63,482 bases of DNA from NCBI GenBank assembly GCA_023336815.1, contig JAMBLJ010000218.1:1-63482 (forward strand), written 5' to 3'. The notes beneath the pieces were generated by a model that was not told the origin of the DNA, did not search any database, and saw only the letters and a program-made list of their open reading frames with translations. The position numbers were made by a program, and so were the translations under genes. This stretch comes from Actinomycetes bacterium (GTDB taxonomy: Bacteria > Actinomycetota > Acidimicrobiia > Spongiisociales > UBA5794). Within the stretch, counting starts at the first letter, position 1. Every line of letters begins with the position of its first letter. Shown in pieces: positions 57,697 to 63,058 of this stretch.

Positions 57697-57792
57697 TATG
57701 TAGTGAGAAACTTAGTACGAGGGTGGGCATAGCCCGAAACGGGAACGACTTGGAACATGACCTACGAACGAATCGGGGTTACGCTAGCGCAG

Positions 57793-59508
57793 ATGCAAAC
57801 GCGGAAGATACTTGACCCAGTCCGATCGCTGTTTCGCAAAGAGAAACTCAAGGCCGACGCCGTCGCGGGTGTGGTCCTTGGAGTTGAGAGCGTTCCGGAT
57901 GGGCTAGCTGGCGGGTTGCTGGCTGGGGTGAATCCAGTCTTCGGTCTGTACGCCTACATGGTGGGAACCTTTACCGGTGGCATCTTCACGAGTTCTTCCT
58001 TCATGGCCGTCCAGGCGACCGGTGCTATGGCGATCGTCGTCGCCGATATCAATATCTCAGGCATGGGAGACGACCCTGACAGGATTCTGTTCACCCTGTC
58101 GATCGTCACGGGCCTCGTCATGCTCGCTGCTGGACTACTCAAACTCGGCTCGATCCTCAGGTTCGTATCCAATGCCGTCATGATCGGGTTCATAAACGCT
58201 GTTGGTGTCAACATCATCCTCGGCCAGCTCGATAACTTCACCGGGTACGAAAGTCAAGGTGCGAACCGGGTGCTACGGGCCATGGACACGCTCTTCAACC
58301 TCGGTCAGGCTCACTTCGGCACCATCGCCATAGGCGTTTCGACGATCGTGTTGATCGTCCTCCTCGAACGGACCAAACTCAAGGCTCTCGGGATGGTCGT
58401 CGCGATCGTGGCGACGTCAGCGGCTGTAGTCCTCCTCGGGATGGAGGTAGCTCAGTTGCTCGACATTGCCGACATACCTCGATCCCTTCCTCGACCGGTC
58501 CTTCCCGTTCTTGGAGCAGTTCCGGCGCTGCTCATCCCAGCGTTCTCTCTCGCGTTTATCGGCTTGGTCCAGGGTGCAGGGATCTCGGCGAACTTCCCGA
58601 ACCCCGACGGCACGTACCCTGTAGCCTCGAAAGACTTCATCGGCCAGGGTGCGGCGAACATCGCTGTAGGCGTGTTCCAGGGCATGCCCGTCGGTGGGTC
58701 GATGTCCGCGTCTTCACTCGTGAAATCTGCGGGGGCGAAGTCACGGCTCGCCCTTCTCATCGCTGGTGTGGTGATGGCCATCGTCATCCTCGTGTTCGGA
58801 TCGGCCGTTGGCTACATCGCCATGCCTGCCCTCGCGGGGTTGCTCATGACGGTCGGGTACCGGACGGTCAAACCGGCTGATATCAAGGCGGTCTGGAAGA
58901 CCGGATCCATGCAGGCCACTGTCATGCTCGTGACGTTCAGTCTCACGATGCTGATAGCCCTGCAGTACGCGGTCCTTGTGGGTGTTGGTATTTCGATGAT
59001 CTTGTACATCATCAACCAATCGAATCAGGTTACGGTCAAGCGGTGGTTGTACGACGAGTCCGGTCGACATCGCGAGGTTGATCCGCCCGCCACCGTTTCC
59101 GCCCACGAGGTCATCGTTATCCAACCGTACGGAAGTCTCTTTTTTGCGGCGGCCCCGGTGTTCGAAGAGGCGCTCCCCAATGTTGGAAGGGACTCGTCGG
59201 GATCCGTCGTCATCCTGCGTCTACGCGGTCGATCCGATCTCGGTTCGACATTCATGGATGTGCTCGGTCGATACGCGGAGGAGTTGAACGCGGCCGGGAG
59301 CAAGCTCGTCATCATCTCTGCGGATGAATCCATCCATCAACAGCTCGCTGCCACACGGGTCACAGCAGTCGTTGGTACGGAGAACATCTACACGTCGGAC
59401 GAGTGGGTGGGTGCCACGCTCAAGCGTGCATACGACGATGCGTCGGTCTGGGTCGAAGCGAATGAGCACCCGGAACACGAGCGTTCTCCTGACGATCGGG
59501 ATACGTAG
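57793..59508 (+). CDS. SulP/SLC26 anion transporter with STAS domain
   Basis: DAVAGVVLG, PVFGLY, GFINAVG, GQGAANI, GMPVGGSMSAS, GSLFFAAA STAS. ATG 57793 lies 7 nt after TACGCT. Confidence 0.92.
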   Translation: MQTRKILDPVRSLFRKEKLKADAVAGVVLGVESVPDGLAGGLLAGVNPVFGLYAYMVGTFTGGIFTSSSFMAVQATGAMAIVVADINISGMGDDPDRILFTLSIVTGLVMLAAGLLKLGSILRFVSNAVMIGFINAVGVNIILGQLDNFTGYESQGANRVLRAMDTLFNLGQAHFGTIAIGVSTIVLIVLLERTKLKALGMVVAIVATSAAVVLLGMEVAQLLDIADIPRSLPRPVLPVLGAVPALLIPAFSLAFIGLVQGAGISANFPNPDGTYPVASKDFIGQGAANIAVGVFQGMPVGGSMSASSLVKSAGAKSRLALLIAGVVMAIVILVFGSAVGYIAMPALAGLLMTVGYRTVKPADIKAVWKTGSMQATVMLVTFSLTMLIALQYAVLVGVGISMILYIINQSNQVTVKRWLYDESGRHREVDPPATVSAHEVIVIQPYGSLFFAAAPVFEEALPNVGRDSSGSVVILRLRGRSDLGSTFMDVLGRYAEELNAAGSKLVIISADESIHQQLAATRVTAVVGTENIYTSDEWVGATLKRAYDDASVWVEANEHPEHERSPDDRDT

Positions 59509-59540: not shown

Positions 59541-60473
59541 TCAGCCGATGTGTTCCTCGAGTTCTCCATTGTGGGTCGTCTGTGTTGGTGCGTCGGCACC
59601 CGCACGCCATGTCCATTTGTCACCCGATGGCGAACATGCGACTTCGATGTCAACGGATGTGCCCGCTTCGATCTGTCGCGGTCGATCAAGGGGGAGGAAT
59701 CCTTGCTCCCAGCTGGGGACGATGTTCGGGGGGACGTTGCTCAAGGAGTTGCCCGGACCGAGCGTGGCAGTGAACCACACCCCGATTCCATGAACGGTCG
59801 CGTTCTTGGTCACTCTCGACGTACCGACGCCAGAAATTGTCGGTTGCGACTCGTTCAGGTCGGTAGTGAACAGTGTGACGGGTTCGCTGACCAGATCGGA
59901 GCGGCTCATCTCGACGGAATGGAGGTTGTTCTGGGCGACGCGTTCGAGCGGCGAGAAGTCAAGATCACGCAGCGGAAGATCCCAGCGCTCGATGCTCTCA
60001 TACTCCGCGGGTACACAGATGAGGCTTGCCGTCACGTCGAGGGACATCGGCACGATCACCGCACCCGGCACAAGGAGCCGCTCCTTCGCATCGCTAACCC
60101 AGGCAACTATCCCCTCATCAAGCCCGGCGTTACCGATCGTTTCCGAGATGAGTACATCGGCGCGTTGGGGTACATCGATGTCGAGTGAAGACCCTTCCAG
60201 GAATGTGATCGTTGCAGCGAACCCGTTCCTGTCGCTGATCTCTCTGGCGATGTGGATGATGGGTTCACGCTCAATGGCGTACACCTGCGAGGCTCCGGCC
60301 TGTGCCGCGAACATCGAAAGTATCCCGGTCCCTGAACCGATATCGACGACGATATCGCCAGGTTGGACCGCCGATGCGATGGCATCGTGGAAGGCGGAGA
60401 TTCTGAGCTCATCCGTGAGCATCGAGTGATGGAAATCGAAGCTGTCAATCGGTCGTACTCCGTACCCGTCCAT
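59541..60473 (-). CDS. Protein arginine N-methyltransferase (PRMT)-like SAM-dependent methyltransferase
   Basis: HHSMLTDELR, VVDIGSGTGILS, VYAIE, ADVLISETIGNAGLDE (double-E), RLLVPGAVIVP, HGIGVWF, PSW loop. Confidence 0.85.
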   Translation of the reverse strand: MDGYGVRPIDSFDFHHSMLTDELRISAFHDAIASAVQPGDIVVDIGSGTGILSMFAAQAGASQVYAIEREPIIHIAREISDRNGFAATITFLEGSSLDIDVPQRADVLISETIGNAGLDEGIVAWVSDAKERLLVPGAVIVPMSLDVTASLICVPAEYESIERWDLPLRDLDFSPLERVAQNNLHSVEMSRSDLVSEPVTLFTTDLNESQPTISGVGTSRVTKNATVHGIGVWFTATLGPGNSLSNVPPNIVPSWEQGFLPLDRPRQIEAGTSVDIEVACSPSGDKWTWRAGADAPTQTTHNGELEEHIG

Positions 60474-60607
60474 CCTGGTTCCCCACGCTCTGTATCGCCT
60501 CGACCGACGATCGCATCGATGCCTACGGCCCCGGCGACGTTACCAGCGTCTTGCAACCAGTGTGCTCGGCGTCATCGACCTGGTGTGGATCGTGGCCGTG
60601 AGCCTGG

Positions 60608-61534
60608 TCAGGTTCGTCGGTCGACCTGGTAGTTGGTGCCCGCTGTGCGCTTTGCGACTTCCTTCATCTCAGAGGCAACAGATGAAGCCTCCCACTCGCT
60701 TGCGAGTGGCTTGTTCTCGGTGGTAGCTACACCCATCGACAGGGAGCAGATCGGAAAGGCATGACGTTCACCGCGGCGATCGGTGACTTCGATGTACCCC
60801 TGAAGAGCATCGGCGGTGTCGTAGTGCTCGAGAATCCCATCGTCAAAGGTCACGACGACCTCGTCACAGAACGGCTTCATGTTGTCGGCACGTACGATCG
60901 CTATAAAGTCGTCCCCACCAACATGGCCTATGAACGCATCCGCTTCGCCCACGGCGTGGGCCGCAGCGAGGAGGATCCTTGCGGTGAACTTGATCACAGT
61001 ATCGCCACGCATGAACCCGTAGTGGTCGTTGAACGCCTTGAAGTTATCGAGATCAGCGTGGACCAGGGCGAATTGTTGCCCTGATGACACACGATCCTCG
61101 AGTTCGCTCGTGATCCGAAAGTTGCCTGGCAAACCGGTGAGCGGTGACAGATCGCGCATCTGCTGCGAGCGACGCAGAACGGTGCGTACGCGCGCGATCA
61201 ACTCTTCGAGGTCGAAGGGTTTAGTGATGTAGTCGTCCGCCCCCAGGTCGAGTCCCTTGACCCTGTCCTCTGCGAGTGACCGTGCTGTCAATACGATGAC
61301 CGGTACGTTGGCCGTTGGTGGGTCACTTCGCATGCGTCGGAGGACGGTGAGGCCATCGATTTCAGGCATCATGACGTCGAGCAACATGAGGTCCGGTGGC
61401 GCTGCCGCGGCCTTCTCAAGCGCCTCTTTCCCACCGCCCGCGAGTTCCACCTCGAACCCATCGAGTTCGAGATTGAGTCTCACGAACTGGAGAATATCCG
61501 GGTCGTCATCGACGACGAGGATGCGTTCCTTCAT
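60608..61534 (-). CDS. Response regulator (REC) - GGDEF-family protein, GGDDF variant
   Basis: ILVVDDD, LLDVMMP, LTA, KPF; then LTGLPGN, DLDNFKAFNDHYG, GD, HVGGDDF, SMGV. Confidence 0.92.
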   Translation of the reverse strand: MKERILVVDDDPDILQFVRLNLELDGFEVELAGGGKEALEKAAAAPPDLMLLDVMMPEIDGLTVLRRMRSDPPTANVPVIVLTARSLAEDRVKGLDLGADDYITKPFDLEELIARVRTVLRRSQQMRDLSPLTGLPGNFRITSELEDRVSSGQQFALVHADLDNFKAFNDHYGFMRGDTVIKFTARILLAAAHAVGEADAFIGHVGGDDFIAIVRADNMKPFCDEVVVTFDDGILEHYDTADALQGYIEVTDRRGERHAFPICSLSMGVATTENKPLASEWEASSVASEMKEVAKRTAGTNYQVDRRT

Positions 61535-62202
61535 CTATTTCCCATACCCACGATCGACTTCATTTCCACGATGGCGTTCACCGGATCGTCAGCGTTAAAC
61601 ACGGAGCTTCCAGCCACGAAGACGTTGGCACCGGCCGAGCTCGCTCGACCGATCGTCTGGAGGTCGATGCCGCCATCGACCTGTATATCGGTCGAAAGTG
61701 CTCGAGAATCAACGGATTCTCTGAGAGCCTCGATCTTGGTGAGAACCTGGTCCATGAACCGTTGCCCACCGAAACCGGGTTGCACGCTCATGACCACCAC
61801 GATGGAACATCGGTCAAGGTACGGAACGATCGCTTCGATTGGTGTGTTCGGTGACAACGCCAGCCCGAAATCAATGCCAAGCCTGTCTGCCTCCTCAGCA
61901 ACGGGTACGGGATCGGGTATCGCCTCGATATGTGCTGTGACCCCATTTGCTCCCGCCACCGCAATGGACTCGATGTACCGCAAAGGATCGGTGATCATCA
62001 GATGACAATCGAGGTACAGATCCGTCGCAGCCCGCAGCGAGGCGATCACGGGGGTACCCAGCGAGATGTTCGGCACGAAGTGGCCATCCATCACATCGAC
62101 ATGGAGGGAGTCGATCTCAGGCGTGATCAGGTCGATCTCTCTCGAAAGGTGAGCGAAATCAGCGGCGAGGATGGATGGCGAGATGCGGATGTCGTTGTTC
62201 AT
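61531..62202 (-). CDS. rpe: Ribulose-phosphate 3-epimerase
   Basis: SPSILAADF, HVDVMDGHFVPN, DCHLMI, MSVQPGFGGQ, QVDGG, VAGS. Confidence 0.97.
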   Translation of the reverse strand: MNNDIRISPSILAADFAHLSREIDLITPEIDSLHVDVMDGHFVPNISLGTPVIASLRAATDLYLDCHLMITDPLRYIESIAVAGANGVTAHIEAIPDPVPVAEEADRLGIDFGLALSPNTPIEAIVPYLDRCSIVVVMSVQPGFGGQRFMDQVLTKIEALRESVDSRALSTDIQVDGGIDLQTIGRASSAGANVFVAGSSVFNADDPVNAIVEMKSIVGMGNR

Positions 62203-62251
62203 TGCCAGCGATTGTATAGGGTTGGCGTCACGCATCGTGGAAGGGAACCGA

Positions 62252-63058
62252 ATGGACGCGTATCGTGTCGCCGAGGGAACGGGCCTGGATCTGAGGACGA
62301 TCGACCCGGGTGAGAAGACAGCATTCGCCGACCTCAAGAAGTCATCGAGTCTGAACGTCCTTGCATCCTATCGCCGACGACTTGCAGATCTGCAACGGCT
62401 GTTGTGGGCCGACGGGAGTAGGAGCCTCTTGTTCGTTCTCCAGGCAATGGACACGGGGGGCAAGGATGGCACTATCCGCAAGGTGTTCACCGGTGTGAAC
62501 CCCCAGGGTGTCGATGTTCGTGGTTTCGGTGTACCAAGCGAACGCGAACTCGATCATGATTATCTGTGGCGTGTCCATACTCAGGCCCCACCACGCGGCC
62601 GGATCGGAATATTCAATCGATCTCACTACGAGGATGTGCTCGTGGTCCGCGTGCTCGATCTTGTGCCTGAGGAGCAATGGCGACGTCGCTACGGACACAT
62701 CCGCGACTTCGAGAGGATGCTCATCGATGAGGGGACGGTCATCGTCAAGGTGATGTTGCACATCTCGAAAGAAGAGCAAGCTCGTCGACTACGGTCTCGC
62801 CTCGACGATCCCGCAAAGAGCTACAAGTTCAATCCGAGTGATCTGGACTCACGAAGTCGCTGGGACGAGTACATGGCCGCATACGAGGAAGCGATCTCGG
62901 AAACGACGACGGTCGACGCCCCGTGGTTCGTTGTGCCGTCAGATCGCAAGTGGTATCGCAACCTCGTTATCTCCAAGATCCTCATCGAAACGCTCGAAGG
63001 TCTCGATCTCACCTATCCGGAACCGGAGCATGATCTGTCTGCCATCGTCATCGAGTGA
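62252..63058 (+). CDS. ppk2: Polyphosphate kinase 2 family (class III-like polyP:nucleotide phosphotransferase)
   Basis: QAMDTGGKDG Walker A, FNRSHYEDVLVVRV, LHISKEEQ, PWFVVPSDRKWYRN. Confidence 0.92.
   Translation: MDAYRVAEGTGLDLRTIDPGEKTAFADLKKSSSLNVLASYRRRLADLQRLLWADGSRSLLFVLQAMDTGGKDGTIRKVFTGVNPQGVDVRGFGVPSERELDHDYLWRVHTQAPPRGRIGIFNRSHYEDVLVVRVLDLVPEEQWRRRYGHIRDFERMLIDEGTVIVKVMLHISKEEQARRLRSRLDDPAKSYKFNPSDLDSRSRWDEYMAAYEEAISETTTVDAPWFVVPSDRKWYRNLVISKILIETLEGLDLTYPEPEHDLSAIVIE

Follow-up and report, generated by a model that had tools for sequence, protein, structure and literature searches.

A 63,482-nucleotide contig from an actinobacterium of the Acidimicrobiia (JAMBLJ010000218.1, referred to in its whole length as the window) carries on its reverse strand a gene for a 310-residue protein that, judged by its sequence and by a structural model, is a bacterial relative of the eukaryotic type I protein arginine methyltransferases (PRMTs) over its full length. 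The explanation favored here, with a probability of about 0.7, is that this protein is an active, dimeric, S-adenosylmethionine (SAM)-dependent peptidyl-arginine N-methyltransferase, and that a dedicated substrate gene is missing from its locus. The gene is a new member of a bacterial family that is already known and is biochemically uncharacterized. A preliminary description, made from the DNA letters alone, had identified the homology correctly and had overstated both the novelty of the gene and its interpretation as part of a signaling system.

A phmmer search of the Protein Data Bank (PDB) with the window protein gives mouse and human PRMT6 as the best matches (E 1.3e-27, residues 12–285), followed in order by PRMT2, yeast Hmt1, PRMT3, PRMT1, PRMT8, and CARM1. 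The Pfam family PF22528 (PRMT_C) is matched with 36.9 bits, compared to a gathering cut-off of 27. The motifs align in order with those of PRMT6, with E111 and E120 falling on the double-E glutamates and P-S-W (253–255) on the T-H-W of the eukaryotic enzyme. These matches are far beyond chance. All of the motifs quoted in the preliminary description are present in the open reading frame (ORF): HHSMLTDELR at 15–24, VVDIGSGTGILS at 42–53, VYAIE at 64–68, ADVLISE at 105–111, SETIGNAGLDE at 110–120, RLLVPGAVIVP at 132–142, HGIGVWF at 228–234, and IVPSWEQG at 251–258. E111 and E120 do lie nine residues apart, within SETIGNAGLDE.

An alignment of 32 homologues was the input to AlphaFold2 for modeling the structure, and the model has a predicted local distance difference test (pLDDT) score of 91.9 and a predicted template modeling (pTM) score of 0.88. 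It contains two N-terminal helices (residues 8–19 and 22–35), a Rossmann domain, a helix-turn-helix arm, and a β-barrel; residues 1–7 are disordered. When the model is compared to the PDB with Foldseek, the top matches are exclusively PRMT cores, including PRMT6 (E 4e-29, template modeling (TM) score 0.77), PRMT3 (2fyt, TM score 0.81, root-mean-square deviation 3.0 Å), and Hmt1 (TM score 0.80). For these three enzymes the TM scores range from 0.75 to 0.81 over approximately 305–320 columns, at 24–27% identity. The profile and structure searches thus both find the PRMT barrel, and the protein does not cluster with PrmA, the methyltransferase of ribosomal protein L11. With a Rossmann domain, an arm, a barrel, and intact double-E and SAM residues, the protein is the stand-alone bacterial PRMT homologue that had been proposed, and neither the profile scan nor the model contains a TPR or any other additional substrate domain.

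The catalytic residues are conserved in the family. In alignment A1, which holds 32 homologues of 41–56% identity, M18, L19, D21, R24, G46, G48, G50, E111, E120, H228, W233, S254, and W255 show no variation, and E68, the acidic residue of post-I (in VYAIE), is conserved at 90% or more. M18, D21, and R24 correspond to M48, D51, and R54 of PRMT1, the last of which is a ligand of the SAM carboxylate. The three glycines correspond to motif I, E111 and E120 to E144 and E153, and W255 to the THW-loop Trp, with the motifs as defined in PMC8619983. Across 80 related loci, the GxGxG loop is kept in every one, and both double-E glutamates are kept in the alignment in 78. In the P-S-W loop the Trp is invariant in A1 and a Ser occupies the His position, where PRMT5 also has Ser. 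Because the double-E loop is intact, specificity of the window protein for arginine is supported.

Domain order and fold are common to the window protein and the type I PRMT cores (PRMT6, PRMT1/Hmt1, PRMT3, and PRMT2). They also have in common the GxGxG and double-E loops, the post-I Glu, a Met that corresponds to M48 of PRMT1, the Asp and Arg of αY/αZ, the HG..WF strand, and the THW-loop Trp. Unlike the type I enzymes, the window protein has no N-terminal accessory domains and a bacterial host, and its orthologues are paired with the gene of a membrane protein.

The gene appears to be native and intact, because its GC content (0.589, compared to 0.593 for the window) and its GC content at third codon positions (0.69) match those of the neighboring genes. 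Foreign origin or contamination can be ruled out on the same composition and on the housekeeping genes that surround it (rsmB, rpe, and ribD). In addition, the identical protein, with the same SulP neighbor, is present in an independent assembly. The start region, M-x-G-Y-D/G followed by FDFHHSML, is conserved among homologues, which supports the ATG at the 60473 end as the start codon.

The closest relatives of the window protein are encoded beside a small partner gene. The comparative set comprised all ORFs of the 80 best genome loci and of the window region, clustered all against all. In 13 of these 80 loci, a gene for a protein of approximately 130 residues lies directly downstream of the methylase on the same strand, and in a 14th locus it lies upstream. 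In most of these loci 15–35 nt separate methylase and partner, and an overlap of 17 nt also occurs. The partner-carrying loci include all six closest relatives and span Actinomycetota, Chloroflexota, and Acidobacteriota, and every close relative whose downstream sequence was examined has the small gene after the methylase, at a distance of 17–35 nt in most. Among metagenomic relatives, it is found directly downstream of P0002, P0008, P0010, and P0012, and 1.1 kb downstream of P0024. The linkage also holds in the reverse direction: four of four independently chosen partner homologues are located 18–20 nt 3′ of a PRMT_C gene, or overlap it by 17 nt.

The partner protein begins with a tail (e.g., MPRMGGRGRGRARRRRRRVRRRR) that has RG/RGG motifs and 10–20 Arg residues. 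After the tail come a single transmembrane helix (ILLVGGLVAFGAYK), an acidic segment that is conserved, and a SHOCT domain (PF09851, 37 bits). With a mean column identity of 66%, the partner is more conserved than the enzyme. No description of a PRMT paired with a SHOCT protein was found in the openly accessible literature. Other genes recur around this cassette as well. In Acidimicrobiia-type contigs (L081, L088, L092, and L001, 506–883), these encode a second small membrane protein of approximately 125 residues, with PLDc_N and SHOCT domains, and a DUF1269 protein, often with sulfatase and FGE-sulfatase/EgtB-like genes upstream.

By the positive-inside rule, the Arg-rich tail of a transmembrane protein is placed in the cytoplasm, and it would therefore be accessible to the acidic enzyme (isoelectric point (pI) 4.4). 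Gene linkage and the negative charge of the enzyme make this tail the most likely candidate substrate for the clade. In a neighbor-joining tree, the window protein nests in a clade in which every other member is linked to the partner. The window itself holds no such cassette: downstream of the methylase there is no ORF combining an RG/poly-Arg tail, a transmembrane helix, and a SHOCT domain, and the end of a convergent SulP gene is found there instead.

The homology, the fold, and the conserved catalytic residues are established here, and the activity, the specificity for arginine, and the methylation state of the product are inferred. The enzyme would be cytoplasmic and probably dimeric, with a pared-down type I core. 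For SAM binding it would rely on R24, E68, and the GxGxG loop; E111 and E120 would grip the guanidinium group of the substrate, and methyl groups would be moved to an omega-nitrogen of Arg in a peptide or protein. The window protein is acidic (pI 4.41, net charge approximately −26; median pI in the family, 4.67), which fits a basic substrate. Because the partner gene is absent from the window, the target in this genome would be encoded elsewhere, or would be different from the tail of the clade.

A further-reaching proposal, which can be offered only tentatively, is that the clade represents the first bacterial writer–substrate pair, in which a PRMT-fold enzyme methylates the cytoplasmic RG/poly-Arg tail of a co-translated, single-pass SHOCT protein and from which the window lineage has become uncoupled. 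Methylation might then tune the charge-dependent binding of the tail to anionic lipids, to nucleic acids, or to the acidic enzyme, and the window enzyme, uncoupled from its partner, might act on other targets.

The family to which the gene belongs is large. A word-indexed search returned 354 relatives, the best of which is 57% identical, and no other sequence among 5.8 billion exceeds 57% identity to the window protein. A phmmer search over 1.84 billion cluster representatives gave 11,318 matches with E ≤ 1e-3, and 1,100 with E ≤ 1e-30, the latter being clusters at 50% identity. With this query, no eukaryotic PRMT of solved structure exceeds 100 bits, and the 150th listed cluster match still scores 169 bits; we infer that none of these solved enzymes is as close to the query as the relatives with E ≤ 1e-30. 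When one genome of each GTDB species was scanned with a pattern, a family locus was confirmed in at least 452 species genomes. The family is found in Actinomycetota (Acidimicrobiia/Microthrixaceae), Chloroflexota, Nitrospirota (Nitrospirales), Acidobacteriota, Myxococcota, Planctomycetota (Planctomycetia), and metagenome-assembled genomes of Latescibacterota.

JGI names many of the relatives "protein arginine N-methyltransferase 1", NCBI names P0016 and P0075 "50S ribosomal protein L11 methyltransferase", and NCBIfam has no model for the bacterial PRMT-like family. The L11 name is best regarded as a systematic misannotation, because the PrmA match covers the Rossmann part alone. Aravind et al. 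(2011; summarized in PMC3417536) described a radiation of PRMT-type methylases in bacteria, with peptides as their proposed substrates, and the window protein shares the PRMT fold of that radiation. Unlike those methylases, the window gene and its clade are located outside secondary-metabolite operons, and the partner of the clade is a poly-Arg, transmembrane, SHOCT protein. The earlier view that PRMTs are essentially eukaryotic was therefore overstated, given the number of species genomes and clusters, the existing names, and this previous account.

Several branches of the family depart from the window protein. The Nitrospirales clade (L042–L078) has a canonical x-H-W loop, with E-E at 119/120, and in this respect it is closer to the eukaryotic THW signature than are the Ser-bearing Acidimicrobiia and Chloroflexi clades. 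Its loci have no adjacent poly-Arg partner, and both the Microthrixaceae and the Nitrospirales clades keep the enzyme in the absence of one. Approximately 80 of 269 retrieved proteins (about 30%, 365–405 residues in length, and including P0097, P0106, P0113, P0123, and P0127) have a conserved C-terminal extension of approximately 65 residues with the motif ..G.....f.L...DG.rt..eIa..l...fP..F...eeA..fV. The best PDB match of an extension profile is PqqD (3g2b, E 0.02), along with two more PqqD entries, and the Pfam PqqD family gives a sub-threshold 12–14 bits. In an AlphaFold2 model the extension (model residues 330–380) forms a three-helix bundle without a β-wing. These features are suggestive of a peptide-binding module like the RiPP recognition element (RRE). 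The window protein does not have the extension, and ends approximately 25 residues after the barrel.

Deep-branching members of the family occur in lasso-peptide-type clusters, with L080, whose cluster is complete, as the example detailed in Table 1 and further cases in L044, L053, L065, L074, and L079. The core of the L080 precursor, GNPSGMFGDGQSGMFMSTVCL, contains no Arg. Nothing relevant on PRMT-like enzymes with lasso peptides was found in the openly accessible literature, and near the window methylase there are no genes for an Asn-synthase, B1/B2, or an ABC exporter. In another locus, on a Chloroflexi-type contig (L098, 8482–10200), a DeaD/DbpA helicase whose linker is rich in RG and NG (GRVSNGRGRSNNGSGRARNGNGNGSGNGRSSNGNGRG) is encoded 3′ of the long-form methylase P0106. 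This linker recalls substrates of eukaryotic PRMTs; it is a single case and is not found in L007, L008, or L012.

Table 1. Coordinates of the methylase gene, its parts, and neighboring features in the window, and of features at loci of relatives (L numbers).
Feature	Location	Strand	Basis or remarks
PRMT-family methyltransferase coding sequence	59541..60473	(-)	ATG start, 310 aa
N-terminal helix HHSMLTDELR (residues 15–24)	60402..60431	(-)	alignment A1, PRMT6 alignment, AlphaFold2
Motif I VVDIGSGTGIL (residues 42–52), GxGxG SAM-binding loop	60318..60350	(-)	A1 invariance
Double-E loop SETIGNAGLDEGI (residues 110–122; E111, E120)	60108..60146	(-)	A1 invariance, PRMT6 alignment
PRMT β-barrel and dimerization arm (residues 156–285; arm helices 155–165, 174–181)	59619..60008	(-)	PRMT_C, AlphaFold2, Foldseek
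THW-loop equivalent P253-S254-W255	59709..59717	(-)	PRMT6 alignment, A1
Spacer between REC-GGDEF-like gene and methylase, 134 nt	60474..60607	(-)	contains TGGTAACGT at 60537–60545
Response-regulator receiver and divergent GGDEF-like domain	60608..61534	(-)	Response_reg 111.8 bits; GGDEF 47.8 bits
Convergent SulP-STAS anion transporter	57757..59508	(+)	Sulfate_transp 185.9 bits, STAS present
Partner gene	L001:2029-2433		
Partner gene	L002:2902-3318		
Partner gene	L003:3313-3735		
Partner gene	L004:8184-8582		
Partner gene	L005:5212-5610		
Partner gene	L085:2248-2766		
Partner gene	L088:6967-7377		
Partner gene	L090:4001-4396		
Partner gene	L092:4001-4408		
Partner gene	L096:4001-4438		
Lasso cluster	L080:2319-8578		
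Lasso cluster, B1 (PqqD)	L080:2319-2606		
Lasso cluster, B2	L080:2578-3024		
Lasso cluster, Asn-synthase cyclase	L080:3021-4976		
Lasso cluster, precursor	L080:5028-5192		
Lasso cluster, methylase	L080:5260-6399		cluster also has a P-loop kinase-like ORF and NTP_transf_5

In the window, the methylase follows rsmB, rpe, and a gene with a response-regulator receiver (REC) and a GGDEF-like domain, all in the same direction. The 134-nt gap to the REC-GGDEF-like gene is as previously described. The candidate extended −10 element TGGTAACGT that had been proposed for the methylase was placed one base off; it occurs once in the spacer, and it is at the level expected by chance, since 15 of 100 shuffled sequences contain it one or more times. 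A scan of the spacer found neither a sigma-70-like promoter nor, on the minus strand, a terminator-like site. A repeated weak tblastn match to the partner in the spacer, at 60565–60633 (E 0.4–2.4), and an hmmsearch score of 3.5 bits are both non-significant, and no relic of the partner gene is claimed.

The GGDEF-like domain covers profile positions 5–92 of 161 and has the motif GGDDF for GG(D/E)EF. The protein is also without an RxxD I-site and has a weak match to the Cas10 palm domain. The ATG of its gene overlaps the rpe stop codon by 4 nt (61531–61534), which implies translational coupling with rpe. At the other end of rpe (61531–62337, reverse strand), its ORF overlaps that of PPK2 (62171–63058, forward strand) head to head by approximately 165 nt; the true starts are probably further in, near MNNDIRISPS for rpe and MDAYRVAEG for PPK2, leaving a short divergent promoter region.

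A signaling link between the methylase and the REC-GGDEF-like gene, as envisaged in the preliminary description, has no comparative support, because the window copy clusters with no counterpart in the 80 loci; the gene is also absent beside the methylase in 13 further gene contexts. On the other side of the methylase, only 32 nt lie between its stop codon and the end of the convergent SulP-STAS gene, which takes the position that the poly-Arg SHOCT gene has in relatives. In L004/L088, L010, L013, L019, L090, and L097, a SulP-STAS gene is likewise located no more than approximately 5 kb from the methylase. PPK2, SulP-STAS, and sulfatase genes are looser recurrent neighbors of the methylase (L088, L090, and L097) that also occur in or near the window. 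This recurrence suggests that the window is a rearranged version of the neighborhood of its relatives.

Several observations weigh against an active peptidyl-arginine methyltransferase in the window. The active site departs from that of canonical PRMTs, in that the His of the THW loop is Ser and SEWMG has become SETIG, with the Trp and Met gone. The αX helix with its YFxxY motif is absent according to A1 and the AlphaFold2 model; 7 disordered residues stand ahead of the first helix, and the family N-terminus M-x-G-Y-D/G has a single Tyr. In the L080 enzyme, E111, E120, and the loop Trp are gone; the fold has thus been put to another use at least once, and the methyl acceptor of this enzyme is probably different. 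Since this enzyme has lost the double-E residues and has a precursor without Arg, the PRMT fold alone does not guarantee arginine specificity. No partner gene could be found in the whole 63-kb window by regular expression, tblastn, or profile hmmsearch in six frames. Even in the relatives, linkage indicates functional coupling and is not proof of a substrate, as the tail could anchor or regulate the enzyme. Finally, no biochemically characterized bacterial PRMT containing the barrel was found in the openly accessible literature.

Four other explanations have been weighed against the favored one. That the protein is a PrmA-type methyltransferase of ribosomal protein L11 (at Lys or N-terminal groups) is suggested by a Pfam PrmA score of 34.2 bits over a cut-off of 22, and by the L11 names that NCBI gives to two homologues. 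PrmA does share the class I Rossmann SAM-binding domain with the window protein. However, the match is confined to residues 31–113 (profile positions 154–235 of 296), the generic part of the Rossmann domain, and the NCBIfam prmA equivalog models score 27–33 bits compared to cut-offs of 183–269. PrmA has an N-terminal L11-binding domain, lacks both the β-barrel and the double-E loop, and has Lys and alpha-amino groups as its methylation targets, whereas the C-terminal half of the window protein is a PRMT barrel and the double-E guanidinium clamp is present. This identity is effectively refuted, and the distinction from PrmA drawn in the preliminary description stands. The same description saw in the xSW loop, which is FSW in PRMT5, a possible sign of a PRMT5-like type II enzyme forming symmetric dimethylarginine (SDMA), possibly a signaling partner of the upstream REC-GGDEF regulator. 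The methylase is indeed co-directional with that gene, with no predicted terminator in between, and PRMT5_C is above threshold in the barrels of some relatives (e.g., 47 bits in P0097). Nevertheless, type I enzymes give the closest matches in both sequence and fold, with similarity to PRMT5 far below. The window protein reaches 11.9 bits with the catalytic-domain model of PRMT5 in Pfam (cut-off 22.9) and 18 bits with PRMT5_C (cut-off 30.3). The product-specificity position, M48 in PRMT1 and Phe in PRMT5, is the invariant M18, and there is no TIM-barrel/MEP50-binding domain, as the window protein begins at the catalytic core. In PRMT1, the H293S change alone leaves the output of monomethylarginine (MMA), as well as that of asymmetric dimethylarginine (ADMA), unchanged, and SDMA is made only when M48F is added (PMC8619983); Ser in place of His is therefore no switch of product type by itself. 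Moreover, the REC-GGDEF gene adjoins the methylase in none of the relatives' loci and is tied by its start to rpe. A PRMT5-like signaling enzyme is accordingly very unlikely, and the product type (MMA, ADMA, or SDMA) is not predictable from sequence.

The peptide-binding groove of PRMTs is formed by the barrel and the dimer arm, and both are retained in the window protein. This is one reason to consider it improbable that the protein is a small-molecule guanidino N-methyltransferase, which would act on free L-arginine or a metabolite and not on proteins. The tight linkage of the orthologues to an Arg-rich protein also argues against it, as does the lack of biosynthetic genes beside the window gene or those of its clade, where ribD, SulP, rpe, PPK2, sulfatase, and SHOCT genes are found. 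In its favor, the window protein has neither a substrate-recruiting domain nor a partner gene nearby, and such enzymes do exist in bacteria. SznE/StzE performs SAM-dependent N-omega methylation of the arginine guanidino group in the streptozotocin pathway (PMC11705231), and BlsL, of blasticidin S, has low similarity to PRMT (PMC5572114). The substrate of SznE/StzE is free L-arginine, and the enzyme belongs to a biosynthetic gene cluster, unlike the window enzyme in its setting (PMC11705231). Somewhat more doubtful still is that the gene encodes an orphaned enzyme, left without a dedicated substrate when its partner was lost, and now non-functional or being lost. The window protein is the sole member of its clade without an adjacent partner, and it stands on a fairly long branch, at no more than 57% identity to the others. 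Yet the ORF is full length, all family-invariant residues are kept, the codon composition is that of the neighbors, and the identical protein beside the same SulP gene in an independent assembly speaks against decay. The partner could also be elsewhere in the genome, and the Microthrixaceae and Nitrospirales clades keep their enzyme without one adjacent.

Arginine methylation is a central modification in eukaryotes, and its bacterial side is almost unexplored, although methyl-arginine has been reported in bacteria by proteomics. A full PRMT core with its catalytic residues is here a native gene of an actinobacterium. The most interesting outcome is the conserved cassette of methylase and poly-Arg SHOCT gene in the orthologues, for which the window copy, lacking the partner, is less informative. 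If the pairing of enzyme and tail is true, it could establish protein-arginine methylation in bacteria and inform the prokaryotic origin of the eukaryotic PRMTs.

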